A DNA stretch of 64,000 nucleotides. Origin: Mustelus asterias (Eukaryota). Every line of letters begins with the position of its first letter. Position 1 is the stretch's first letter. Position numbers and translations under genes: made by a program. The notes beneath the pieces were generated by a model that saw nothing but the letters and a program-made list of their open reading frames with translations, was not told the DNA's origin and did not search any database. The stretch is from positions 32,426,001 to 32,490,000 of the forward strand of contig NC_135809.1 of the NCBI RefSeq assembly GCF_964213995.1, in the 5' to 3' direction. This document shows positions 3,290 through 61,438 of this stretch, piece by piece.

Positions 3290-4450
3290 TTGAAAACATA
3301 ACAATGTTTTGTCCTCAATTGCTTTTTGTGGTAATGAATTCCACAGGCTCATCACTCTGGGTGAAGAAATTTCTCCTCATCTCAGTCCTAAACAGTCTAT
3401 CCTGTATCCTTAGACTATGATCCTTGGTTCTGGACTCCCCCACCATTGGGAATGTCCTTCCTGCATCTACCCACCTAGACCTGATCGAATTTTATAGGTT
3501 TCTATGAGACCCCCTCATTTTTCTGAACTGCAGCAAATATAATCCTACCCAACTCAATCTTTCCTCATACATCAGTCCCACCATCTCAGGAATCAGTCTA
3601 GTAAACATTCGCTGCATGCCCTCAACAGCAAGAACATCCTTCCTCAGATAAAGAGATTAAAACTGCACACAATATTCCAGGTGTGGACTCACCAAGGCCC
3701 TGTATAATTGCAGCAAATCATCCCTGCTCCTGTACTCAAATGTTCTCACTATGAAGGCCAACATGCCACTTGCCTTCTTTACCATCTGCTACACCTGCGT
3801 GCTGGTGTACGAGGACACCCAGGTCTCGTAGCACATTCCCTTCTCCTAATTTATGGCCAATCAGATAATAATCGGCCTTCCTGTTTTCGCTACCAAAGTG
3901 GATAACCTCACATTTATCCACAATATACTGCATCTGTCATGCATTTGCCCACACACTCAGCTTGTCAAAATCACACTGGAACATCTCTGCATCCTCCTCA
4001 CAGCTCATCCTCCCACCCAGCTTTGTGTCATCAGCAAATTTGGAGTTATTACATTTAGTTCCCTCATCTAAATCATTAATATGTATTGTGAATAGCTGGG
4101 GTCCTAGCACTGATCCCTGCAGTGAGTACCTCACTAGTCACTGCCTGCCATTTAGAAAACACCGGTTTACTCCTACTCTTTGTTTCCTGTCTGCCAACCA
4201 ATTTTCTATCCATCTCAATACACTACCCCCAATCCCATGCCCTTCAATTTTATACACTAATCTCTTATGTGGGATTTTGTCGAAAGCCTTCTGAAAGTCC
4301 GAATAAATCGCATTCACTGGCTCCCCCTCATTAACTTTACGAGTTACATACTTGAAGAATTCCAGTAGATTTCCCTTTAGTAAATCCATGCTGACTCTGT
4401 CTGATCTTGCCACTGTTTTCCAAGCGCTCTGCTATTAAATCCTTGTTAAT
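3290..4450 (-). mobile_element. Degenerate CR1/HER1 LINE ORF2 (RT) fragment
   Basis: Broken frames encode DFQKAFDKIPH, QGSVLGPQLF, KFADDTKLGG and QSQHGFTKGKS; several frameshifts and deletions. Confidence 0.9.
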
Positions 4451-9645: not shown

Positions 9646-11710
9646 GAACATAGAACATAGAAAGCCACAGCACAAACAGGCCCTTCGGCCCACAAGTTGC
9701 GCCGATCACATCCCCACCTCTAGGCCTATCTATAGCCCTCAATCCCATTAAATCCCATGTACTCATCCAGAAGTCTCTTAAAAGACCCCAACGAGTTTGC
9801 CTCCACCACCACCGACGTCAGCCGATTCCACTCACCCACCACCCTCTGAGTGAAAAACTTACCCCTGACATCTCCTCTGTACCTACCCCCCAGCACCTTA
9901 AACCTGTGTCCTCTCGTAGCAACCATTTCAGCCCTTGGAAATAGCCTCTGAGAGTCTACCCTATCCAGACCTCTCAACATCTTGTAAACCTCTATCAGGT
10001 CACCTCTCATCCTTCGCTCTCCAGGGAGAAGAGACCAAGCTCCCTCAACCTATCCTCATAAGGCATGCCCCCCAATCCAGGCAACATCCTTGTAAATTTC
10101 CTCTGCACCCTTTCAATGGCTTCAACATCTTTCCTGTAATGAGGTGACCAGAACTGCGCGCAGTACTCCAAGTGGGGTCTAACCAGGGTCCTATAAAGCT
10201 GCAGCATTATCTCCCAACTCCTAAACTCAATCCCTCGATTAATGAAGGCCAGTACGCCGTACGCCTTCTTGACCGCATCCTCCACCTGCGAGGCCGATTT
10301 AAGAGTCCTATGGACCCGGACCCCAAGGTCCTTCTGATCCTCTACACTGCTAAGAATGGTACCCTTCATATTATACTGCTGCTTCATCCCATTGGATCTG
10401 CCAAAATGGATCACCACACACTTATCCGGGTTGAAGTCCATCTGCCACTTCTCCACCCAGTCTTGCATTCTATCTATGTCTCGCTGCAACTTCTGACATC
10501 CCTCCAAACTATCCACAACACCACCTACCTTGGTGTCGTCAGCAAACTTACCAACCCATCCCTCCACTTCCTCATCCAGGTCATTTATGAAAATGACAAA
10601 CAGCAAGGGTCCCAGAACAGATCCCTGGGGCACTCCACTGGTCACTGACCTCCATGCAGAGAAAGACCCCTCCACAGCCACTCTCTGCCTTCTGCAGGCA
10701 AGCCAGTTCTGGATCCACAAGGCAACAGCCCCTTGGATCCCATGCCCTCTCACTTTCTCAAGAAGTCTTGCATGGGGGACCTTATCGAACGCCTTGCTGA
10801 AGTCCATATAGACCACATCCACCGCTCTTCCTTCGTCAATGTGTTTGGTCACATTTTCAAAGAACTCAACCAGGCTCGTAAGGCACGACCTGCCCTTGAC
10901 AAAGCCGTGCTGACTACTTTTGATCATACTAAACTTCTCTAGATGATCATAAATCCTGTCTCTCAGGTTCCTCTCCATCAACTTACCAACCACTGAGGTT
11001 AGACTCACCGGTCGGTAATTTCCCGGGCTGTCCCTGTTCCCTTTCTTGAATATAGGGACCACATCTGCAATCCTCCAATCCTCCGGAACCTCTCCCGTCT
11101 CCATCGACGATGCAAAGATCATCACCAAAGGCTCCGCAATCTCCTCCCTCGCCTCCCACAGTAACCTGGGGTACATCCCATCCGGTCCCGGCGACTTACC
11201 AACCTTGATGCCATTCAATAGTTCCAACACATCCTCTTTCTTTATGTCCACATGCTCGATCCTTTCTGTCCACCGCAAACCAGCAGTACAACCACCCAGA
11301 TCCCTTTCCACCGTGAATACCGAGGTAAAGTATTCATTAAGCAGCTCCGCCATTTCTAACGGTTCCGCACAAACTTTTCCCCCTTCACCTTTTAAGGGTC
11401 CTATGCCTTCACATCTCATCCTTTTACTCTTGACATATTTGTAGAAAGCCTTGGGATTCTCCTTAATCTTACCCGCCAAGGCCTTCTCATGACCCCTTCT
11501 CGCTCTCCTAATTTCCTTCTTAAGCTCCTTCCTACATCCCGTATACTCCTCTAAATCCTTAACACCTCCTAGCTCTCTGAACCTTCTGTACGCCTCTCTT
11601 TTCTTATTCACCAGGTTCATCACAACCTTCGTGCACCACGGTTCCCGTACCCTACCAACACCCCCCTGTCTCATCGGAACGTTGTCATGCAGAGCTCCAG
11701 ACAAACATTG
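9646..11710 (-). mobile_element. Young 5'-truncated CR1/HER1 LINE
   Basis: (CTATGTT)n tail; continuous RT reading frame with a single frameshift near 10010-10020. Confidence 0.95.
9726..11709 (-). pseudogene. CR1 ORF2 reverse transcriptase, N-terminally truncated, one frameshift
   Basis: ORFs 10007-11716 and 9726-10010: KSPGPDG, NYRPVSLTS, DFSKAFDKVPH, GVPQGSVLGP, FADDTK. Confidence 0.93.
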
Positions 11711-15280: not shown

Positions 15281-16937
15281 ATCTGAATATCCGAATCCAG
15301 GGGCAACACCTAACTTTTTCACCTCCCTTATAAGGTTGAAGTTGAGCTCCAAAGACTGGAAGATTGAGATATTATAAAGCCTGTTCAATTGTCAGAATGG
15401 GCTGCACCCATAATCTCTATCCTCAAACCGGATCGTACTGTAAGAATTTGAGGGGATTATAAATTAATAGCCAGCAGAGGAGCTCAGATACACAGATACT
15501 TTATGCCAAACTATTTGGAGGTTTAAAATACATTAAGTTAGACCTCAGTCACGCCTATCAGAAGCTGGAATTGGATGAAGAGGTTGAATTCCGTCAACTC
15601 TTAAAGGTTTATACCAATATACATGTTTACCTTTTGGAATCTCATCGGCCTGTGTCATTTTCCAGTGTACGATGGAAAGCTTATTACAAGGCATTCCTAA
15701 TGTAGTGGTTTATCTTGATGACATTCTAATTACCTCATCTGCCTCATCTGAAGAACACCGCTCAAACTTGGAGAAAGTTTTGAATCAATTTAAAGAAGCA
15801 GGTGTTAAGCTGAAATGGGAAAAATGTACTTGCCGGGCATATAAAGTTCCCTATTTAGGATTTAGTGTGGATGCAAAAGATTTACATCCTTTGGAAGACA
15901 AAGTAAAAACCATGCAACTGACATCTAATGAAGCTACAAAATCAAAGCACATTTTTAAACCATCCAAAAATTAACCATATTAAGACATCAAATTATAATA
16001 TAGTATTGGATAAGAAAATTCAAAACGCAAAAAGACCTTTCAGCTCTTCAAGTCTGCTCCAACTAGCTCCCAAGCTGCTAACCTGCACCATGGGGCTGCT
16101 ACTGTTAGTGACAGTGCTAGACAACTGCACATGATGTCCCATGTCTGCCACTTCACACTAATCAGACTTATGCAAATATGATGAGAATCACCCCAATATA
16201 AGTAATAGTTCACTCTGTTTGTATCTGGATAATAAGCCAGGAATTTAACCCATACCATGGCTTTTATAAGGGGATGTTTGGAGTTATCGTCTGGCAGATG
16301 ACAGAGGCAGCGATAATTTGCTCCAAATGAAATGATCGCAGATTTCTTTGGGGTACTTCATAAAGATATGAAAAATCATGTTTTGTGCACTATGTAAAAT
16401 TTATATGCTCATCAAATTGTAGCATTTCGCTCCACTATGGGTTTATGTCGCAATGTAGGCATCTCATCAGGATTACAGTCTGCTCCACTCACCAGCCATG
16501 AAACCCTCTGGAATTACATTAGTCAATGGTGTACAACCAGACATATAAATCTGAAAGATCACATCAGTAATGAAATTGTGATCTTCTGGAAACAGTTGGT
16601 TTTGTAGGTATAACATAATCATCCCAAGCAGCTCAGAAAGATGCGATGGTGCAGAAATTCATTGCTGTTGCAATCTCAGTGCTAGAGACAGTGCAGTGAC
16701 TAACCAGAAGGATAATTTCAGGTCAGCATGGAATTGCTGGTATAGCATTAATTGTCAGTGAACCCAACTGCTAAGGCCTAAACAGTGCTATTCTGTAAAA
16801 GCCAAATACTTGGTACTGCATAATTCCTCAACCATAGAACATAGAACATAGAACATAGAACATTACAGCGCAGAACAGGCCCTTCGGCCCACGATGTTGC
16901 ACCGACCAGTTAAAAAAAAAAACTGTGACCCTCCAAC

Positions 16938-19757
16938 CTAAACCAATTTCTTTTCGTCCATGAACCTATCTACGGATCTCTTAAACGCCCCCAAACAAGG
17001 CGCATTTACTACTGATGCTGGCAGGGCATTCCAATCCCTCACCACCCTCTGGGTAAAGAACCTACCCCTGACATCGGTTCTATAACTACCCCCCCTCAAT
17101 TTAAAGCCATGCCCCCTCGTGCTGGATTTCTCCATCAGAGGAAAAAGGCTATCACTATCCACCCTATCTAAACCTCTAATCATCTTATATGTTTCAATAA
17201 GATCCCCTCTTAGCCGCCGCCTTTCCAGCGAAAACAATCCCAAATCCCTCAGCCTCTCCTCATAGGATCTCCCCTCCATACCAGGCAACATCCTGGTAAA
17301 CCTCCTCTGCACCCTCTCCAAAGCCTCCACATCCTTCCTGTAATGTGGGGACCAGAACTGCACACAGTACTCCAAGTGCGGCCGCACCAGAGTTGTGTAC
17401 AGTTGCAACATAACGCTACGACTCCTAAATTCAATCCCCCTACCAATAAACGCCAAGACACCATATGCCTTCTTAACAACCTTATCTACTTGATTCCCAA
17501 CTTTCAGGGATCTATGCACACATACACCTAGATCCCTCTGCTCCTCCACACTATTCAAAGTCCTCCCGTTAGCCCTATACTCAACACATCTGTTATTCCT
17601 ACCAAAGTGAATTACCTCACACTTCTCCGCATTAAACTCCATCCGCCACCTCTCGGCCCAACTTTGCAACCTGTCTAAGTCTTCCTGCAAACTACGACAC
17701 CCTTCCTCACTGTCTACCACACCACCGACTTTGGTGTCATCAGCAAATTTGCTAATCCACCCAACTATACCCTCATCCAGATCATTAATAAATATTACAA
17801 ACAGCAGTGGCCCCAAAACAGATCCCTGAGGTACACCACTTGTAACCGCACTCCATGATGAATATTTACTATCAACCACCACCCTCTGTTTCCTATCCGC
17901 TAGCCAATTCCTGATCCAATTTCCTAGATCACCCCCAATCCCATACATCTGCATTTTCTGCAGAAGCCTACCATGGTGAACCTTATCAAACGCCTTACTA
18001 AAATCCATATATACCACGTCCACTGCCTTGCCCCCATCCACCTCCTTGGTCACTTTCTCAAAAAACTCAATAAGGTTAGTAAGGCACGACCTACCTGCCA
18101 CAAAACCATGCTGACTATCACCTATCAATTCATTACTCTCCAAATAACTATAAATCCTATCCCTTATAATTTTTTCCAACATCTTGCCGACAACAGAAGT
18201 GAGACTCACCGGTCTATAATTCCCGGGGAAGTCTCTGTTCCCCTTCTTAAACAATGGGACAACATTCGCTAACCTCCAATCTTCTGGTACTATACCAGAG
18301 GCCAACGACGACCTGAAGATCAGAGCCAGAGGCTCTGCAATCACTTCTCTTGCCTCCCAGAGAATCCTTGGATAAATCCCATCCGGACCAGGGGATTTAT
18401 CTATTTTCAGACCCTCCAGAATATCCTGCACATCCTCCTTATCAACTGTAATACTGTCTATTCTACTCCCTTGCAACCCAGTGTCCTCCTCAGCTATATT
18501 CATGTCCCCTTGCGTGAACACCGAAGAGAAATATTGGTTCAATGCTTCACCAATCTCCTCCGGTTCCACACATAACTTCCCTCTGCCATCTATAACTGGC
18601 CCTAAACTTGCCCTAACCAACCTTCTGTTCTTGACATACCTATAGAACGCCTTAGGATTCTCTTTAACCCTATCCGCCAAAGTCTTCTCATGTCCTCTTT
18701 TAGCCCTTCTAAGCTCGCTCTTCAACTCCCTCTTAGCCAATCTAAAGCTTTCTAGTGCACTACCCGAGTGCTCACGTCTCATCCGAACATAAGCCTCCTT
18801 TTTCTTTTTAACCAACAAAGAAACTTTTTTGGTGCACCACGGTTCCCTAGCCCTACCAATTCCTCCTTGCCTGACAGGGACATACCTATCACAGACTCGC
18901 AGTAGCTGCTCCTTGAAAAAACTCCACATGTCGGACGTTCCCAGTCCCTGTAATCTCCTAGTCCAACCTATGTTTCCTAATTCTCTCCTAATAGCCTCAT
19001 AATTACCCTTCCCCCAGCTAAAACCACTGGCCCGAGGTTCATGCCTATCCCTTTCCATCACTAAGGTGAACGTAACCGAATTGTGGTCACTATCACCAAA
19101 ATGCACACCAACTTCCAAGTCTAGCACCTGGTCTGGCTCATTTCCCAGCACCAGATCCAATGTAGCCTCACCTCTAGTTGGCCTGTCTACATACTGAGTC
19201 AAAAAACCTTCCTGCACGCTTTGAACAAAAACTGACCCCTCTAACGAGCTAGAGCTATAACAATTCCAGTCAATATTAGTCAAGTTAAAATCCCCCATAA
19301 CAATTGCCCTATTACTTTCACTCCTAAGCAGGATTGACTCCGCAATCCTTTCCTCAACCTCTCTAGAACTTTTAGGAGGTCTATAAAAGACTCCCAACAG
19401 GGTGACCTCTCCTCTCCTATTTCTAATCTCCGCCCATACTACCTCAACAGATAAGTCCTCATCAAACCTCCTCTCTGACACTGTGATACAATCTCTGACC
19501 AATAATGCTACCCCTCCCCCTCTTCTACCTCCTTCCCTACTTCGACTAAAACATTTGAACCCCGGGACCTGCAGCATCCATTCCTGCCCCTGCTCTATCC
19601 ATGTCTCTGAAATAGCCACAACATCGAAGTCCCAGGTACTGATCCACGCTGCAAGTTCACCCACTTTATTGCGAATACTCCTGGCATTGAAGTATACACA
19701 TTTCAAACCCTGCTCCACCCCACCTCTGCAATGCCGTGCATTGCAGTCCCCATCCAT
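16938..19757 (-). CDS. CR1 ORF2: apurinic-like endonuclease + reverse transcriptase (939 aa, intact)
   Basis: APE motifs YFNARS, ISETW, GDFN, SDHN; RT motifs KSPGPDG, DFSKAFD, GVPQGSVLGP, FADDTK; no internal stops. Confidence 0.97.
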   Translation of the reverse strand: MDGDCNARHCRGGVEQGLKCVYFNARSIRNKVGELAAWISTWDFDVVAISETWIEQGQEWMLQVPGFKCFSRSREGGRRGGGVALLVRDCITVSERRFDEDLSVEVVWAEIRNRRGEVTLLGVFYRPPKSSREVEERIAESILLRSESNRAIVMGDFNLTNIDWNCYSSSSLEGSVFVQSVQEGFLTQYVDRPTRGEATLDLVLGNEPDQVLDLEVGVHFGDSDHNSVTFTLVMERDRHEPRASGFSWGKGNYEAIRRELGNIGWTRRLQGLGTSDMWSFFKEQLLRVCDRYVPVRQGGIGRAREPWCTKKVSLLVKKKKEAYVRMRREHSGSALESFRLAKRELKSELRRAKRGHEKTLADRVKENPKAFYRYVKNRRLVRASLGPVIDGRGKLCVEPEEIGEALNQYFSSVFTQGDMNIAEEDTGLQGSRIDSITVDKEDVQDILEGLKIDKSPGPDGIYPRILWEAREVIAEPLALIFRSSLASGIVPEDWRLANVVPLFKKGNRDFPGNYRPVSLTSVVGKMLEKIIRDRIYSYLESNELIGDSQHGFVAGRSCLTNLIEFFEKVTKEVDGGKAVDVVYMDFSKAFDKVHHGRLLQKMQMYGIGGDLGNWIRNWLADRKQRVVVDSKYSSWSAVTSGVPQGSVLGPLLFVIFINDLDEGIVGWISKFADDTKVGGVVDSEEGCRSLQEDLDRLQSWAERWRMEFNAEKCEVIHFGRNNRCVEYRANGRTLNSVEEQRDLGVCVHRSLKVGNQVDKVVKKAYGVLAFIGRGIEFRSRSVMLQLYTTLVRPHLEYCVQFWSPHYRKDVEALERVQRRFTRMLPGMEGRSYEERLRDLGLFSLERRRLRGDLIETYKMIRGLDRVDSDSLFPLMEKSSTRGHGFKLRGGSYRTDVRGRFFTQRVVRDWNALPASVVNAPCLGAFKRSVDRFMDEKKLV

Positions 19758-19807
19758 GCATCCCTCACTTTCAGCCCCACTACTCAGGATCCCTCCCCCC
19801 CCCCGAA

Positions 19808-20737
19808 TCAGTTTAAACCTCCTTGCATGGCCTTAGCAAATTTACCCCCCAGGATATTGGTCCCCTTCTGATTAAGGTGTAGACCATCCTTCTCATAGAG
19901 GTCACACCTTCCCCAGTACGAGCCCCAATTGCTTAAGTACCTGAACCCCTCCCTCCTGCACCATCCCCTCAGCCATGAATTCAAACCTTCCCTCTCCCTA
20001 TTCCTCTCTAAACTATCCCGTGGTACAGGCAAGAGTCCAGAGATAACCACTCTGTCAGTCTTGGCCTTTAGTTTCCACCCCAACTCCATAAATCCCTGCC
20101 TAATATCCCCTTCCCCTATCCTCCCTATGTCGTGTGTCCCCACATGTACAATAACTTGTGGTTTATCTCCCTCCCCCCTAAGAGTCCTGAATACCCTGTC
20201 AGACACATCCCGGACCCCAGCCCCTGGTAGGCAACACACCAACCCTGAGTCCCTACCTTTAGTTCCGACCCTCCTATCTGTCCCCTTAATTGTGGAGTCC
20301 CCAATCACAAGGCCCAGTCTTTTACAGCCCCTAACCACCTGAGCTTTCTCACTCGGCTCACCCCCAGAGATCTGCTCTCTATGCTCAGTTGATTCCTCCT
20401 CAACTGTAGCCTCCAGCACCGAAAACCTATTATGGAGGGGAACCGCCCCAGGGGATTGTCTTCCCGATTGCTTCTTACCCCTCCTCCTGGCATTGACCCA
20501 AGCCTCATTTCTAGGAGTTACTATTTCTCTATAACTCCTATCAACTTCCACCTCCGCCTCCCGAATTATGCGGAGTTCCTCTACCTCCCCCTCCAGCTCC
20601 TTTACACGCTCCTCCAGAAGCTGCAATCTAATGCACTTCTTACAACTAAAATCTCCTGAAACACTACTGGATTTCCTCACCACATACATCCCACAGGAGA
20701 TGCAGCATACTGCCTGAACTGCCATCCCTGAAGCCAT
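19808..20737 (-). CDS. CR1 ORF1: zinc finger/coiled coil + SGNH esterase (309 aa from ATG at 20737)
   Basis: CISC...CKKC followed by heptad LQLLEERVKELEGEVEEL; SGNH blocks VIGDS, PGAG, HVGTHD, DGLHLN; the upstream part of the called ORF lies in UTR repeats. Confidence 0.93.
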   Translation of the reverse strand: MASGMAVQAVCCISCGMYVVRKSSSVSGDFSCKKCIRLQLLEERVKELEGEVEELRIIREAEVEVDRSYREIVTPRNEAWVNARRRGKKQSGRQSPGAVPLHNRFSVLEATVEEESTEHREQISGGEPSEKAQVVRGCKRLGLVIGDSTIKGTDRRVGTKGRDSGLVCCLPGAGVRDVSDRVFRTLRGEGDKPQVIVHVGTHDIGRIGEGDIRQGFMELGWKLKAKTDRVVISGLLPVPRDSLERNREREGLNSWLRGWCRREGFRYLSNWGSYWGRCDLYEKDGLHLNQKGTNILGGKFAKAMQGGLN

Positions 20738-20801: not shown

Positions 20802-21163
20802 CCAACTGTCACTCTCCACTGCAGCCCGAGCAGCACTCCCACACTGAGACACCAACTGTCACTCTCCACTGCAGCCCGAGCAGCACTCCCACACTGAGAC
20901 ACCAACTGTCACTCTCCACTGCAGCCCGAGCAGCACTCCCTCACTGAGACACCAACTGTCACTCTCCACTGCAGCCCGAGCAGCACTCCCACACTGAGAC
21001 ACCAACTGTCACTCTCCACTGCAGCCCGAGCAGCACTCCCTCACTGAGACACCAACTGTCACACTCTACTGCAGCCCGAGCAGCTCTCCCTCACTGAGAC
21101 ACCAACTGTCACTCTCCACTGCAGCCCGAGCAGCACTCCCTCACTGAGACACCAACTGTCACT
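20802..21163 (-). repeat. About 7.3 copies of a 50-bp tandem monomer forming the CR1 5' UTR
   Basis: GCAGCCCGAG recurs at 20821, 20871, 20921, 20971, 21021, 21071 and 21121. Confidence 0.97.
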
Positions 21164-21279
21164 CTCAACCTTCAGGCTTTCTTCCTCCTTTCCTTGTTGT
21201 ATCCCTCAAGTAGCTAAAGCATTAGCAGACAAAGCAAACACTCCATTCACGTGACATCATTCAACTCAATGCTGTAGCT

Positions 21280-32209: not shown

Positions 32210-33067
32210 TTACAGATAGTGTGACATGAACCCAATATCCCGGTTGAGGCCGTCCTCGTGTGTGCGGAACTTGGCTATCAGTTTCTGTTCAGCGACTCTG
32301 CGCCGTCGTGTGTCGCGAAGGCCGCCTTGGAGAACGCTTACCCGAATATCAGAGGCCGAATGCCCGTGACCGCTGAAGTGCTCCCCAACAGGAAGAGAAC
32401 AGTCTTGCCTGGTGATTGTCGAGCGGTGTTCATTCATCCGTTGTCGCAGCGTCTGCATAGTTTCCCCAATGTACCATGCCTCGGGACATCCTTTCTTGCA
32501 GCGTATCAGGTAGACAACGTTGGCCGAGTTGCAAGAGTATGTACCGTGTACCTGGTGGATGGTGTTCTCACGTGAGATGATGGCATCTGTGTCGATGATC
32601 CGGCACGTCTTGCAGAGGTTGCTGTGGCAGGGTTGTGTGGCGTCATGGTCACTGTTCTCCTGAAGGCTGGGTAGTTTGCTGCGGACAATGGTCTGTTTGA
32701 GGTTGTGCGGTTGTTTGAAGGCAAGAAGTGGGGGTGTGGGGATGGCCTTGGCGAGATGTTCGTCTTCATCAATGACATGTTGAAGGCACCAGAGGAGATG
32801 CCGTAGCTTCTCCGCTCCGGGGAAGTACTGGACAACGAAGGGTACTCTGTCCACTGTGTCCCGTGTTTGTCTTCTGAGGAGGTCGGTGCGGTTTTTCGCT
32901 GTGGCGCGTTGGAACTGTTGATCAATGAGTCGAGCGCCATATCCTGTTCTTATGAGGGCATCTTTCAGCGTCTGGAGGTGTCTGTTGCGATCCTCCTCAT
33001 CCGAGCAGATCCTGTATATACGGAGGGCTTGTCCGTAGGGGATGGCTTCTTTAACGTGTTTAGGGTG
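32210..33067 (-). pseudogene. Penelope ORF C-terminal part (RT thumb/linker + GIY-YIG), inverted copy
   Basis: Near-identical to the C-terminus of 33067-34299. Confidence 0.9.
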
Positions 33068-34299
33068 TCTTCACCTTCAACAACCAGTTCTTCATCCAGA
33101 CACACGGAACAGCCATGGGGACCAAATTCGCACCTCAATATGCCAACATCTTCATGCACAGGTTCAAACAAGACTTCTTCACCGCACGGGACCTTCAACC
33201 GATGCTATACACTAGATACATCGATGACATTTTCTTCCTTTGGACTCATGGTGAACAATCACTGAAACAACTCTATGATGACATCAACAAGTTCCATCCC
33301 ACCATCAGACTCACCATAGACTACTCTCCGGAATCGGTTGCATTCTTGGACACACGCATCTCCATTAAGGACGGTCACCTCAGCACCTCACTGTACCGCA
33401 AGCCCACGGATAACCTCACGATGCTCCACTTCTCCAGCTTCCACCCTAAACACGTTAAAGAAGCCATCCCCTACGGACAAGCCCTCTGTATACACAGGAT
33501 CTGCTCGGATGAGGAGGATCGCAACAGACACCTCCAGACGCTGAAAGATGCCCTCATAAGAACAGGATATGGCGCTCGACTCATTGATCAACAGTTCCAA
33601 CGCGCCACAGCGAAAAACCGCACCGACCTCCTCAGAAGACAAACACGGGACACAGTGGACAGAGTACCCTTCGTTGTCCAGTACTTCCCCGGAGCGGAGA
33701 AGCTACGGCATCTCCTCTGGTGCCTTCAACATGTCATTGATGAAGACGAACATCTCGCCAAGGCCATCCCCACACCCCCACTTCTTGCCTTCAAACAACC
33801 GCACAACCTCAAACAGACCATTGTCCGCAGCAAACTACCCAGCCTTCAGGAGAACAGTGACCATGACACCACACAACCCTGCCACAGCAACCTCTGCAAG
33901 ACGTGCCGGATCATCGACACAGATGCCATCATCTCACGTGAGAACACCATCCACCAGGTACACGGTACATACTCTTGCAACTCGGCCAACGTTGTCTACC
34001 TGATACGCTGCAAGAAAGGATGTCCCGAGGCATGGTACATTGGGGAAGCTATGCAGACGCTGCGACAACGGATGAATGAACACCGCTCGACAATCACCAG
34101 GCAAGACTGTTCTCTTCCTGTTGGGGAGCACTTCAGCGGTCACGGGCATTCGGCCTCTGATATTCGGGTAAGCGTTCTCCAAGGCGGCCTTCGTGACAGA
34201 CGACGGCGCAGAGTCGCTGAACAGAAACTGATAGCCAAGTTCCGCACACACGAGGACGGCCTCAACCGGGATATTGGGTTCATGTCACACTATCTGTAA
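33067..34299 (+). CDS. Penelope-like RT + GIY-YIG endonuclease, 5'-truncated but open
   Basis: GTAMGTKFAPQYANIFM, RYIDDIF, linker PCHSNLCKTC (Neptune-type Cys motif), VVYLIRC...WYIGE, RMNEH, GLN. Confidence 0.92.
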   Translation, partial: VFTFNNQFFIQTHGTAMGTKFAPQYANIFMHRFKQDFFTARDLQPMLYTRYIDDIFFLWTHGEQSLKQLYDDINKFHPTIRLTIDYSPESVAFLDTRISIKDGHLSTSLYRKPTDNLTMLHFSSFHPKHVKEAIPYGQALCIHRICSDEEDRNRHLQTLKDALIRTGYGARLIDQQFQRATAKNRTDLLRRQTRDTVDRVPFVVQYFPGAEKLRHLLWCLQHVIDEDEHLAKAIPTPPLLAFKQPHNLKQTIVRSKLPSLQENSDHDTTQPCHSNLCKTCRIIDTDAIISRENTIHQVHGTYSCNSANVVYLIRCKKGCPEAWYIGEAMQTLRQRMNEHRSTITRQDCSLPVGEHFSGHGHSASDIRVSVLQGGLRDRRRRRVAEQKLIAKFRTHEDGLNRDIGFMSHYL

Positions 34300-42705: not shown

Positions 42706-45700
42706 CTATAAGTTCAAACGGTCTGGGGGACCGCACCGTCGCTGTGACCTCCTCAACACCGGCAATGACACCGGTTCAGGCAATCGCGGTGACGTTCTCT
42801 CCAAGGCGGTGTCCAGCGACTCCTCCAGTGCCTCACGGGCCGGTAGACCCCGAGATGGTGACAATCCGCTGAACTCGGGCACGCCTTGAAGTGGCGACCA
42901 TCTCCTGGACTCAGGCAAGCTGTACATGGGAGTAAGAGGGTTAAGTGGTGGTCCCGATACTGCCCGCGCCGTGTCAGGAGGGGAAATAATGGTTGGGGGG
43001 TACCTAACAGGAGGTGTGGGAGCGACAGGGGTTTCCAAGCCCCCTGCTGGCGCCAGATCTCGAATCGAGACCGTGTCCTCTCGCCCGTCAGGATATGCCA
43101 CGTAGGCATACTGAGGGTTGGCATGGAGGAGATGGACCTGTTCAACCAAAGGGTCGGACTTGCGGGTCCTAACATGCCGCCGCAGGAGGACAGGTCCTGA
43201 GTACGTCAACCAAGACGGTAATGAGGTCCCAGAGGAAGACTTCCTAGGGAATGATAACATTCTCTCATGAGGAGTAGCGTTGGTTGCCGTACACAGGAGT
43301 GAGCGTATGGAGTGGAGCGCATCAGGGAGTACCTCTTGCCAACGGGAGACTGGAAGACCTTTAGACCTCAACGCCAGTAAGACAGCCTTCCAGACTGTAG
43401 CATTCTCTCGTTCGACCTGTCCGTTACCCCTTGGGTTGTAGCTCATGGTTCTACTAGAGGCAATCCCATATGAGAGCAGGTATTGCTTCAAGTCATCGCT
43501 CATGAACGACGAGCCCCTATCGCTGTGGATATAACAGGGGTAACCGAACAGGGTGAAAAGATCACGAAATGCCTTGATAACCGTGGCAGCGGTCATATCA
43601 GAACAGGGAATGACAAAAGGGAATCGTGAGTACTCATCAACCACATTGAGGAAGTACACGTTCCGATCTGTCGAGGGAAGGGGGCCCTTAAAGTCCACAC
43701 TCAGTCTTTCGAAGGGACGAGTGGCCTTAACGAGGTGTGCCCTGTCAGGTCGGTAGAAGTGCGGTTTGCATTCCGCGCATACCCGGCAGCTTCTGGTTAT
43801 GGACCTGACATCCTCCACCGAGTAGGGTAGATTCCGGGCTTTTATGAAGTGGTAGAGCCGAGTGACCCCCGGATGGCAGAGGTCATTGTGGAGAGCCTGC
43901 AATCGATTCTCCTGCATACTAGCGCATGTTCCACGCGACAGGGCATCCGAGGGCTCGTTGAGCTTCCCTGGACGATACATGATATCATAATTGTAGGTGG
44001 AGAGTTCGATTCTCCACCTCAAAATCTTATCATTCTTGATCTTACCCCGTAACGTGTTGTTGAATATGAACGCCACGGACCGCTGGTCCATGAGCAGAGT
44101 GAACCGTTTTCCCGCCAAGTAATGGCGCCAATGCCGGACGGGCTCCACAATGGCCTGGACCTCCTTTTCCACCGCCGAATGTCGAATTTCAGGGCCTTGG
44201 AGGGTGCGAGAGAAAAAGGCGACGGGCCTGCCCGCCTGGTTAAGTGTGGCGGCCAGGGCGAAATCAGATGCATCACTCTCCACCTGGAAGGGGATGGACT
44301 CATCGATAGCGTGTATCGTGGCTTTCGCGATGTCGGCTTTTATTCTCGCAAAGGCTAAGCGAGCCTCTGTTGCTAGGGGAAAAGAGGTAGATTTGATGAG
44401 CGGACGGGCTTTGTCCGCGTAATTGGGAACCCACTGTGCGTAGTATGAGAAGAAGCCTAAACATCTTCTCAGCGCTTTGACGCTAGTGGGCAGGGGAAGT
44501 TCGAGGAGAGGACGCATACGGTCTGGATCAGGGCCAAGGACCCCGTTTTCCACCACGTATCCAAGGATAGCTAGGCGGCGCGTGCGAAATACACACTTCT
44601 CCCTGTTGTAGGTCAGATTCAGGCGAGATGCAGTGTGTAAGAATCTAAGAAGGTTGGCATCATGGTCCTGCTGGTCATGGCTGCAGATGGTGACGTTATC
44701 CAGGTACGGGAAGGTAGCCCGCAGTCCGTTCTGGTCCACCATTCAGTCCATAGCACGCTGGAAGACCGAGACCCCTTTCGTGACACCAAAAGGAACCCTT
44801 AAAAAATGGTACAGGCGACCATCCGCCTCAAAGGCCGTGTATTGTCGGTCCTCTGGGCGAACGGGGAGCTGGTGGTAAGCAGCCATGGTACTGCGCAATC
44901 TGATTGACCATGTCAGATATGCGCGGGAGGGGATACGCATCCAGCTGCGTGTATCTGTTAATGGTCTGACTATAGTCTATGACCATCCGGGGTTTGTTCC
45001 CATTCTTAACCACCACGACTTGCGCTCTCCAAGGACTAGCGCTAGGTTGGATGATCCCTTCCTTGAGGAGCCGCTGAACTTCAGATCGAATGAAGATCCG
45101 ATCCTCAGCGCTGTAACGCCTGCTCTTTGTTGCGATGGGCTTGCAGCCTGGCACGAGATTCTGGAATAGGGAGGGTGTTGTAATCCTAAGCGTTGAGAGA
45201 CTACATGTGGAGCGCGTTGGGCAATTTAGAGGCTGCGGGTCTCCCACTGAAAGCGGAGGGAGTGGCCCATCGTACTGCAGGGTTACACTCTTCAAGTGGA
45301 CCATAAAATCTAGTCCTAGGAGTATTGGCGCACAAAGGTGCGGTAACACAAGGAGCCTGAAGTTCTCGTAAACCGTGCCCTGCACCGTCAGATTGACCAT
45401 GCAACTCCCTAGCACGGTGACAGACCGGGACCTTGACGCCATCAAAATTGTCTACTTGACAGTCCGAATCTGGAGACCACACCGCTTCACGGTGTCTGGG
45501 TGAATGAAGCTCTCCGTGCTCCCGCTGTCAAACAAACAATAAATCGGGCGTTTGTTTACCTGTATGTCCATCATGGACTTGTCGAGTCTGTGAGGCTTGG
45601 CCTGGTCCAGGATGATCGACGCCACCGTTGGTTCGTGGGTGCAACTGCAGGCAGCTGAGATGGTTGATGACAACCCCTGCTGGTCATTCGCGATCGGTGC

Positions 45701-46678
45701 CGACCAAAATGGCTGCCCCCATAGGTCGCACGTGGACGATGGCGCCAAAACCTGCGGCCCCTGCAGGTCGCACGTGTCTTGCGACTCCGTCGTTCAGAAT
45801 GGTGACGTCCTGGAATCGCACATGGTAGAAGACCTTGAAGATGCAGAAGACAAGGAGGCCGGCTCCGGGGAGTCACACGCCGCACTGCTGTTCTTGGATT
45901 GAAGTTTGGACCGGCATACCTTGGAATAGTGCCCCTTCTTGCCGCAGGCGGAGCACAACACCACTTTAGCTGGACATCGCTGCCGAGGGTGTTTCACCCC
46001 CCCACAGAAGTAACACCGCGGGCCACCTGGAGCTGCTGTCGTCGTCAGGTCCGAGGCTGGGAACGCAATCGCGCAGTTTTTCGGTCCCGCTGAATGAAGT
46101 GGAGTCTGTGACTGCCCCTGCCACGCTGTCTCCACGTGGTCGTCGGGGTACATCGCCAGACTTTTGGAGGCAGTTTCTAGAGCATCAGCTAACTCTATGG
46201 TTTTAGTGAGATCGAGGTTACCTTGCTCCAACAGCCGAAGGCGGATGTACGACGAGCCGATTCCCGCCACGAACGCATCTCGAGCTAGGTCGTTCATGTA
46301 CTGGTCTGCCGACACTGACTTGCAGTTGCAGGCTCTGGCTAGCTGCTGAAGCTTGCACGCGTACTGTTCCGTCGTTTCGCCGGGCTGCCGCCGTCGAGTG
46401 GCTAGAAGGTATCGAGCATGGATCTCATTCGGCGGTTTGTTGTATCGCTTCTTGAGGAGCTCGAGGGCCCCTTTGTAGTCGGTGGCCCCACGGATCGCTC
46501 GGTATACAGCGTCGCTTACCCTCGCGTGGAGGACCCGGAGTCTGTCGGCGTCGTCGGTGACCGCTGTGGAGGCGTTGAGGTAATCCTGGAAACACTTCAA
46601 CCAGTGGTCGAAAGTGTTCGATGCTCCCGCCGCACGTGGGTCCAACGTAAGCCGTTCGGGTTTAAGCATTTGCTCCAT
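42706..46678 (-). pseudogene. gag-pol polyprotein; originally one ORF, now three in-frame stops and one frameshifting deletion in RT
   Basis: Double CCHC CYFC..H..CPA..CSAC..GH..C; protease LFDSGS; RT YLDN; RNase H ESDASD; integrase HPG..CRVC, VDFKGP, HSDRG, ERENA. In-frame stops at 45794, 45452 and 44743; deletion near 44885 removes the first RT catalytic Asp region. Confidence 0.92.
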
Positions 46679-46719
46679 GTTTTCTTTGTCGTTTTGTTTT
46701 CAAAAAAAAAGAATTTACT

Positions 46720-60849: not shown

Positions 60850-61438
60850 AGAAGGCAAGTTATGTTACAGCTTTATAAAACTTTAGTTAGGCCACATTTG
60901 GAATATTGCATGCAGTTCTGATCACTGCACTACCAGAACGATGTGGATGCTTTGGAGAGGGTGCAAAGAAGGTTTACCAGGATGTTGCCTGGTCTGGAGA
61001 GTTCTAGATATGAGGAAAAATTGAATAAATTTATATTGTTTTCACTGGAAAACGGAGGCTGAGGGGGCGACGTGACTGAGATCTACCAAATTATAGGGTG
61101 GATAGTCAGAGGCTTTTTCCCAGGATGGGAAGGTCAACTATAAGAGGGCACAGGTTCATGGTAAGAAGGGGAAGTTTTTGGGGAGACATGCAGGGAACAT
61201 TTTTCAACAGAGGGTGGTGGGTGCCTGGAACGCATTGCCAGTGGAGGTGGTGGAAGAAAGCACGTCAGCAACGTTCAAAGTGTATCATGATGGACACATG
61301 AATGGGAAGTGAAGAGAGGGATAGAAATCACATGCGGGCAATAAGTAGTGAGTTTAAATAAGGATTAGAAATCAGTGCAGGCTTGGTGGGCCAAAGGGCC
61401 TGTTCCTGTGCTGTATTGTTCTTTATTCCTTGTTCTAT
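60850..61438 (+). mobile_element. CR1 3' fragment (degenerate)
   Basis: Encodes VMLQLYKTLVRPHLEYCMQF and MDSQRLFPR; CR1 tail. Confidence 0.88.

Follow-up and report, generated by a model that had tools for sequence, protein, structure and literature searches.

Putative programmed −1 ribosomal frameshifting at a conserved U_UUA_AAC site between ORF1 and ORF2 of esterase-type CR1 LINEs

Introduction

Among the LINEs of amniotes and cartilaginous fish, CR1 is a major one. The window (the whole 64,000-nt stretch of Mustelus asterias DNA analysed) contains an intact, very young CR1 LINE on the minus strand, with ORF2 one base out of frame with ORF1. How is the ORF2 enzyme of such an element translated? 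The heptamer that closes its ORF1, U_UUA_AAC, is the slippery site of coronavirus ORF1a/1b. Passages of PMC5009743 rank this heptamer among the shiftiest of eukaryotes and, like passages of PMC3708506, call the translation of LINE ORF2 unclear. A preliminary description of the sequence proposed an esterase-APE-RT fusion made by −1 frameshifting with a G-quadruplex as stimulator. The comparative tests on heptamer, phase and AUG favour the fusion; the G-quadruplex is not upheld as the general stimulator.

Structure of the element

All features lie on the minus strand. The 5' UTR is a tandem array of a 50-bp unit repeated 7.3 times (20802..21166). ORF1 (19808..20737) is defined by the ORF listing and domain matches, encodes 309 aa and has the C-terminus ...GGLN-stop. 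Its N-terminus is Cys-rich and zinc-finger-like, followed by a coiled-coil-like segment and an SGNH esterase that matches PF13472 (E 1e-7) and PDB 4C1B (E 2e-37). The 3' end reads GGA GGT TTA AAC TGA. As first described, and as seen directly, the final codons hold the heptamer U_UUA_AAC (19811..19817) in the canonical X_XXY_YYZ phase, and the stop, UGA in this copy (19808..19810), is directly 3' of it. A 10-nt spacer that includes the stop (19801..19810), near-constant in length and variable in sequence, leads to a conserved G-rich element, GGGG(G/A)R(A/U)GGG (19791..19800), which is the candidate frameshift stimulator. In this copy the stop is followed by TTC, G10 (19804-19795), A and GGG (19793-19791), the element being the 3' portion of the G10 run plus AGGG; further G-tracts are GGGG (19778-75) and GGG (19764-62).

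The 111-nt linker (19707..19817) reads FKLIRGGGG... in the −1 frame, which is open, and contains an AUG at 19757-19755 that is not conserved. The ORF2 body (16938..19706; PF03372, PF00078) is intact and comprises an APE endonuclease and a reverse transcriptase. The 3' UTR ends in a (TTCTATG)4.4 microsatellite tail (16833..16937). The −1 frame runs without a stop into ORF2, as noted earlier: the open stretch begins at 19832, ends with the ORF2 stop at 16938, and counts 959 codons from the heptamer on. No protease domain was detected in the element by domain search.

The features of a CR1 with type IV (esterase) ORF1 are present: zinc-finger-like and SGNH ORF1, APE and RT ORF2, microsatellite tail. 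The element is taken to belong to the CR1 clade rather than L2 on the basis of ORF1 type and tail. Its ORF1 architecture is that given in part of PMC4120745 for CR1 subgroup 7 of vertebrate hosts, ORF1 type IVB (zinc finger, leucine zipper and esterase); the text there on esterase, frame and CR1 does not address the ORF2 translation mode of this subgroup.

Conservation of the heptamer

Loci were aligned by the esterase active site as anchor. The survey left out 25 of 148 loci (profile short of the ORF1 end, or score <60), and loci L001-L030, which had been chosen for identity across the junction, are excluded from the counts. TTTAAAC lies exactly 71 nt past the block V Asp of the esterase in 118 of 121 CR1 loci, in agreement with the earlier statement that it is common at vertebrate CR1 ORF1 ends. 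The exceptions are one heptamer displaced by an upstream indel and two point mutants. The 121 loci form 20 groups with ORF1 identity between groups down to 19%; the groups are related, so the conservation counts are not fully independent. Among the 20 group representatives the wobble position of the heptamer is T in all, across six amino acids, and its codons are TTA in 19/20 and AAC in 20/20; other invariant Leu/Asn columns of the same representatives use mixed codons (10/20, 11/20, 11/20). By parsimony the three third positions of the heptamer have 0, 1 and 0 changes on the tree; on the same tree the preceding 23 third positions have a mean of 5.0 changes, zero at none. The ORF1 stop is UAG in 16 groups, UAA in 3 and UGA in 1.

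Bare TTTAAAC is not rare, with 9 strand matches within 64 kb. The compound motif (heptamer, T(R)(R), 7 nt, GGGGRRWGGG) is far above chance, with 21,083 genome matches vs 4 for the reversed pattern; compound matches in which the wobble is not T number 314 genome-wide vs the 21,083 with T. At the protein level, 37 of 49 homologous ORF1 proteins have a Leu-Asn C-terminus, and x-Leu-Asn-stop ends occur in sharks, rays, sturgeon, turtles and squamates. Residues E, K, Q, M and W are informative at −3 because their codons cannot end in U; they stand there in 1 of 70 distinct xLN tails vs 30 at −4. The extra C-terminal residues of ORF1 appear dispensable for the fold, since 4C1B, a solved related esterase, stops two residues beyond the aligned helix. 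By codon choice, changes on the tree, protein tails and genome-wide wobble counts, the heptamer is conserved beyond protein constraint.

One contig from a related organism is a counter-example: its heptamer is broken and it has a non-3n indel. DNA of the groups with xGN and xKN ORF1 tails was sought and not found, and the heptamer data cover neither group. No L2-type esterase control was found in the host genome of the window with the query used, and another search was empty at its threshold.

Reading phase and start of ORF2

Comparison of the wobble U and the −1 phase with the ORF2 AUG, as suggested at the outset, finds the first two kept and the AUG not conserved. The modal linker is a multiple of three in 17/17 groups, with 12 different lengths between 87 and 354 nt. 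Linker stops over 870 codons number 2 in the −1 frame and 56 and 79 in the other frames. At single-copy level, decayed copies included, the −1 phase is found in only 90 of 117 loci. Of the 16 groups whose linker is open, 7 have no in-frame AUG through the tenth codon of APE, and the other 9, the window's group among them, have a linker AUG. Between groups the AUG varies in position (codons 4-74) or is missing, and an upstream −1-frame AUG is absent in 18/18 linker types. In the young family F165, ORF2 is intact in 11 of 20 copies, and the first AUG of the intact copies is codon 125 or 166, beyond the APE Asn at 47.

Of 18 linker types, 16 have CUA as the codon that overlaps the ORF1 stop; CUG is confined to the window type and CGA to one mutant copy. 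An AUG overlapping or adjoining the stop (UAAUG or AUGA type) was not found in the 18 linker types. Since most groups have CUA over the stop, CUG stop-start initiation was rejected as a general mechanism. The junction is translated as ...FKL..., the −1 frame, in three gene models from databases. Longer natural fusions were also looked for; the single case, a ray gene model with esterase-FKL-linker-APE, is an annotation rather than proof.

The length of the G-run modulo 3 had also been proposed as a check. Phase is kept at group level, by modal linkers, and not strictly among copies of the window family. About a quarter of these copies have G9, G11, G12 or G13, mostly off-phase. These variants make up 3 of the 12 copies in the initial 26 Mb of contig C1, and 30 were counted by eye on the whole of C1; a result of 40/40 G10 is unusable as a rate, row order having clustered the G10 copies. 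ORF2 is intact in 22 of the 30 variant copies. Most variant copies are spread over SNP sub-lineages; private SNPs are common to one sub-lineage of three copies (G11, G11, G12) and to one G9 pair, and off-phase sources may therefore have been mobilised.

Downstream G element

The preliminary description gave a 6-nt spacer before the G-run. Across groups, however, about 10 nt separate the heptamer from the conserved element; the 6-nt spacer and the later GGGG and GGG tracts are peculiar to the window family. The spacing of heptamer to G element is exact in 21,083 genome-wide matches, shorter in 840 and longer in 1,142, and a 9-nt variant is used by at least two families. As a general stimulator the proposed G-quadruplex does not hold: only 2 of 19 groups, the window's own family included, could form a three-tier structure, and the F165 run is interrupted (GGGGAGUGGG). 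A two-tier pattern occurs in 10 of 19 groups.

The region downstream of the heptamer is C-poor. No canonical hairpin or pseudoknot was found 5-9 nt downstream (z −1.6 to +1.1; pseudoknots not modelled explicitly), nor was a stable fold, a fold shared or conserved across groups, a long-range pairing partner for the junction or a match of the junction to an Rfam family. What is found is a short unstructured motif at a fixed distance of about 10 nt, as in the arterivirus type of signal. There is close to an even chance that the stimulator is a protein, either a host G-tract binder or ORF1p, on the unstructured G element. Stop-codon pausing alone is a doubtful candidate, and a two-tier or intermolecular G-quadruplex a rather unlikely one.

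Proposed mechanism and alternatives

Esterase-type vertebrate CR1 LINEs probably express ORF2 by programmed −1 ribosomal frameshifting at U_UUA_AAC, as judged from comparative sequence data. A fused enzyme is likely because a near-invariant heptamer ends ORF1, ORF2 is one base out of frame and the AUG is sometimes missing. The tRNA-Leu and tRNA-Asn would slip in tandem, and the junction would therefore read ...AMQGGLN-LIRGGGG.... The G element, lying immediately beyond the mRNA entry channel, probably causes the pause, with slow decoding of the stop assisting. The majority of ribosomes would terminate at the codon after the heptamer, giving a high ratio of ORF1p to fusion. The window element would thus make a free 309-aa ORF1 protein alongside a predicted ORF1-endonuclease-reverse-transcriptase fusion of 1,266 aa and 143 kDa. 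More tentatively, esterase-type CR1-like LINEs across animals might use a gag-pol strategy, in which a stimulator of a new class, a protein-bound short G element 10 nt past the slip site, gives one esterase-endonuclease-RT protein; this broader reading is rather unlikely.

If termination were coupled to reinitiation at a fixed non-AUG codon that overlaps the stop (C-UA/C-UG, placed as in AUGA), or if the post-termination 80S ribosome slid back by one base, the product would be a separate ORF2p beginning at the linker. Either accounts for the −1 phase, the open linker, the adjoining stop and the absent AUG, and has precedents: calicivirus reinitiation accepts non-AUG codons and post-termination 80S ribosomes can shift to nearby codons (passages of PMC5972666), and L1 ORF2 initiation is described as AUG-independent in part of PMC5009743. 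Such reinitiation is nevertheless improbable, as the overlapping codon varies (CUA, CUG or CGA, counted above), no upstream element is conserved at the nucleotide level, and no reason is given for synonymous-site fixation of U_UUA, upstream of the P-site codon.

It is very improbable that ORF2 is translated by leaky scanning or by ordinary reinitiation at an AUG and that the heptamer and G element have another RNA role (packaging, ORF1p binding, RNA processing). The window family does have an AUG 20 codons into its linker, off-phase G-run copies are common, a few perhaps forming small lineages, and SART1 and L1 use reinitiation (part of PMC3708506); but intact young F165 copies lack an AUG before APE codon 125, the AUG elsewhere wanders or is missing, and multiple-of-three linkers and stop avoidance upstream of the AUG are left unexplained. 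Scarcely credible is a joining of frames in the RNA, by splicing or by polymerase slippage adding one base, rather than by the ribosome. The G-run is demonstrably slip-prone at the DNA/RT level, but its slips cannot bypass the ORF1 stop because it lies after that stop. U3A3 is a short run, a GU donor is not conserved at the junction, and contigs assembled from three runs, tentatively taken to be RNA, show neither joints nor indels at the heptamer.

Comparison with known systems

Frameshifting in CR1 would share with canonical viral −1 frameshifting (coronavirus ORF1a/1b; retroviral and gypsy gag-pol; PEG10) an X_XXY_YYZ site and a structural ORF fused to a polymerase ORF in −1; it differs in the stop directly after the heptamer and in that no hairpin or pseudoknot was found 5-9 nt downstream. 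The host element is non-LTR and, as no protease domain was detected, the fusion would probably not be cleaved. Arterivirus nsp2 −1/−2 frameshifting, which nsp1beta and PCBP transactivate, is like it in having a short unstructured conserved motif at matching distance: part of PMC7939443 describes in PRRSV a C-rich motif 11 nt downstream of the shift site, without RNA structure. The CR1 motif is G-rich instead, the heptamers differ and a CR1 transactivator is only hypothetical. Reporters with the same U3A3C heptamer and downstream G-tracts reach up to about 7% G-quadruplex-stimulated frameshifting with a 6-8 nt spacer (PMC3919603), whereas in CR1 four G3 tracts occur in 2 of 19 groups only and the conserved run begins at 10 nt. 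LINEs with termination-reinitiation (L1; SART1, UAAUG) and LINEs bearing 2A also have a bicistronic RNA and low ORF2 output, but they make a separate ORF2p, and CR1 conserves phase and heptamer, not AUG. The Drosophila HeT-A gag frameshift is another case in a non-LTR element (part of PMC5009743); that shift is within gag, in an element without RT, and fuses no ORF1 to ORF2.

A full-text literature search found no account of CR1 frameshifting, which original CR1 descriptions or Repbase/Dfam notes may mention; by term match it is absent from the searched text of PMC5009743, PMC3708506, PMC3905857, PMC8665684 and PMC4316615. Part of a 2016 review (PMC5009743) gives natural G-quadruplex frameshift stimulators as not known. 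A natural stimulator of that kind, or else a transactivator that binds G-tracts, would be an extension of recoding biology. If the proposed frameshift is correct, a large LINE group produces an enzyme fused to ORF1 in the manner of retroviral Gag-Pol; annotated CR1 ORF2 start codons are wrong, cis preference and RNP assembly gain a simple physical basis, and the native junction must stay in CR1 retrotransposition assays. A natural 27-nt frameshift signal without an RNA fold would then be open to direct testing.

Description of the CR1 element

The window contains a complete LINE on the minus strand. A tandem array in the 5' UTR (20802–21166, −; 50-bp unit, 7.3 units, 97% matches) varies in length between copies and is followed by a U-rich tract directly preceding the ORF1 AUG. 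ORF1 (20737–19808, −) encodes an SGNH esterase (PF13472; solved relative 4C1B, E 2e-37). ORF2, ending at 16938 (−), encodes APE and RT domains. The 3' end carries a (TTCTATG)n tail (−). Nearest named relatives of ORF1 are from sharks and rays. In domain architecture the element corresponds to the type IVB ORF1 subgroup of vertebrate CR1 described in PMC4120745. The family is very young, since the last 170 aa of ORF1 are identical in 150 of 150 scored hits and copies differ from the window copy by a median of 5 substitutions per 2,440 nt. ORF1 ends GGT TTA AAC TGA, which includes the heptamer TTTAAAC (19817–19811, −); the −1 frame read from there stays open over 959 codons.

Conservation of the heptamer

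CR1 loci were gathered with ORF1 protein queries from the same genome and from host DNA in metagenome contigs. From 148 loci, 25 were dropped (profile short of the ORF1 end or score <60) and 2 more end before the site, leaving 121. The site was located by an anchor on the Asp of esterase block V; the motif itself was not used. The slip site proposed in the preliminary description, wobble U included, is conserved across CR1 ORF1 ends. TTTAAAC lies at +71 nt from the block V Asp in 118/121 loci; of the exceptions, one is shifted through an indel further upstream and two carry point mutations. The loci fall into 20 groups (90% identity), with pairwise ORF1 identity as low as 19%. In six metagenome groups, one of them nearly matching a sturgeon protein, ORF1 ends in motifs such as LIERALN, which we take to be bird-type. 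The heptamer is absent from one contig of a related organism, which speaks against the frameshift reading.

Codons were counted in one natural copy per group (n = 20). The codon preceding Leu-Asn has T at the third position in 20/20 groups, although six amino acids are encoded. TTA encodes Leu in 19/20 groups and AAC encodes Asn in 20/20; the shares of these codons among Leu and Asn codons in the rest of the region are 14% and 46%. Other invariant Leu or Asn columns have codons split 10–11/20. Parsimony on a maximum-likelihood tree of length 7.9 requires 0, 1 and 0 changes at the heptamer's three third positions and a mean of 5.0 (minimum 1) at the 23 third positions before them. Genome-wide, the junction pattern has 21,083 matches with T at the wobble position, 314 with another base and 4 in the reversed control; the first 100 of the 314 are scattered over many spacer types.

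Leu-Asn forms the C-terminus in 37/49 near homologs of ORF1 and in 70 of 135 distinct tails (from 213 proteins). Residues lacking any U-ending codon occupy position −3 in 1/70 LN tails and position −4 in 30/70. Named xLN-ending proteins include those of sturgeon, turtle, lizards and a snake. The junction feature is real and widely conserved. More distant esterase ORF1s end at the equivalent place in xGN (16 tails; P0095, P0097, P0098, P0106–P0108, P0149, P0152, P0209–P0223), in KN (P0140, P0188, P0122, P0133, P0155, P0178, P0194, P0195) or in GF/FF/FL (P0096, P0216, P0218, P0143). Judged as protein ends only, the xGN, xKN and GF/FF forms would fit other classic heptamers.

Phase and start codon of ORF2

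The −1 phase, as proposed earlier, is kept across junctions. In 17/17 groups where APE is locatable, the most frequent heptamer-to-APE distance is divisible by three, and 12 different lengths of 87–354 nt occur; were phase free, the odds of 11 independent length changes all being in frame would be about 6e-6 by our own arithmetic. Two further linker types are likewise open in the −1 frame. Among 870 linker codons, stops number 2 in the −1 frame versus 56 and 79 in the others. Three database gene models (ray and turtle) read through the site as ...FKL..., one running on into APE; these models verify the DNA and its open frame but do not establish the mechanism. In the window family, the sub-lineage L200, L230 and L289 has inherited a common in-frame deletion of 30 nt in the linker and keeps ORF2 intact. 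In L110, L115 and L117 the 261-nt linker holds a leftover APE start (LRCVYSNARS) and then a second linker end, which also occurs in other families; this linker is an in-frame recombinant between CR1 families.

Set against the heptamer, the ORF2 AUG is not conserved. No upstream −1-frame AUG occurs in 18/18 linker types. AUG is absent as far as 10 codons into APE in 7/16 open-linker groups and ranges from codon 4 to 74 in the other 9. The clearest family without an early AUG is F165, another young CR1 (129 scored hits, 88–90% to query), with ORF2 intact in 11/20 fetched copies; in intact copies the first AUG falls at codon 125 or 166, beyond the APE Asn at codon 47.

Length of the G run modulo 3, put forward as a further point to check for conservation, is not strictly kept in the window family. 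Six of the first 30 copies are not G10, 5 of these off-phase. On contig C1, 30 copies have G9–G13 other than G10 (counted by eye), about one-quarter of copies over the part of the contig in which both kinds are countable. They occur in most SNP-defined sub-lineages in roughly proportional numbers, a distribution that recurrent homopolymer slips or assembly error would be expected to produce. One three-copy off-length sub-lineage shares private SNPs, as does one G9 pair. ORF2 is intact in 22/30. Such copies could be trans-mobilised, could use the AUG of the window family, or could weaken the frameshift claim.

Downstream element

The heptamer is followed by 10 variable nt including the stop (ungapped comparison, 19 groups), then by G at offsets 17–21 in 17–19/19 groups and at 24–25 in 18–19/19, synonymous positions of the −1 frame included. 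Genome-wide, spacing between heptamer and G element is exact in 21,083 matches, 1–3 nt shorter in 840 and 1–3 nt longer in 1,142. A 9-nt spacer variant occurs in at least two families with the −1 phase retained. The 6-nt spacer, G10 and further G-tracts described earlier are present in the window family and specific to it. A G-quadruplex is not upheld as general stimulator: the three-tier pattern occurs in 2/19 groups, the two-tier in 10/19. It may contribute in the window family, because G-quadruplexes can stimulate −1 shifts on U3A3C (about 7% at 6–8 nt; PMC3919603); interrupted GA/GU repeats without ligand gave no stimulation in the assays of PMC12710887.

Canonical −1 frameshifting normally needs a structure 5–9 nt downstream (PMC3542737). 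None was found there in CR1, a point against the frameshift reading, nor a stable local fold common to groups downstream of the heptamer (z −1.6 to +1.1), a common long-range pairing partner, or an Rfam match. The junction differs from the canonical class, defined by stem-loop or pseudoknot. Its geometry fits that of the arterivirus signal, a protein-bound unstructured motif 11 nt downstream (PMC7939443); by analogy, the G element may bind a protein.

Expression of ORF2

A minority of ribosomes would undergo tandem slippage on U_UUA_AAC and evade the adjoining ORF1 stop, much as in retroviral gag-pol and coronavirus 1a/1b frameshifting. Such slippage probably yields the fusion predicted from sequence (1,266 aa, 143 kDa, junction ...AMQGGLN-LIR...). 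Reinitiation at a non-AUG codon overlapping the ORF1 stop, possible according to calicivirus work (PMC5972666), would account for linker phase and missing AUG; it leaves the fixed U_UUA unexplained, the overlapping codon is usually CUA, and it is unlikely. Reinitiation at AUG fails on F165 and is very improbable, and joining of the frames at the RNA level, for which support is lacking, is hardly credible.

Accounts of LINE ORF2 expression invoke reinitiation (L1, SART1) or call the matter unclear, and some LINEs employ 2A recoding (PMC3708506, PMC5009743); HeT-A is the sole non-LTR frameshift met in the review material (PMC5009743). No report of CR1 frameshifting was found in the literature searched; 1997–2003 CR1 papers and Repbase notes, outside that search, may bear on priority.

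Other elements

CR1-like ORF2 fragments without ORF1, 47–67% identical to the window ORF2, lie at 9756–11680 (−), 3357–4371 (−) and 60853–61211 (+). Domain matches (RNase H, integrase) mark an LTR-retrotransposon pol fragment at 42706–44742 (−), with upstream ORFs at 44828–45451 and 45794–46699 having no Pfam match. Segments at 32210–33070 (−) and 33064–34299 (+), with weak GIY-YIG and RT matches, are possibly Penelope-like or other retroelement remains. A CR1 ORF1 deposited as Pseudomonas aeruginosa SGNH hydrolase (P0011) and a distant match in a bacterial MAG contig (L161) are likely host contamination.
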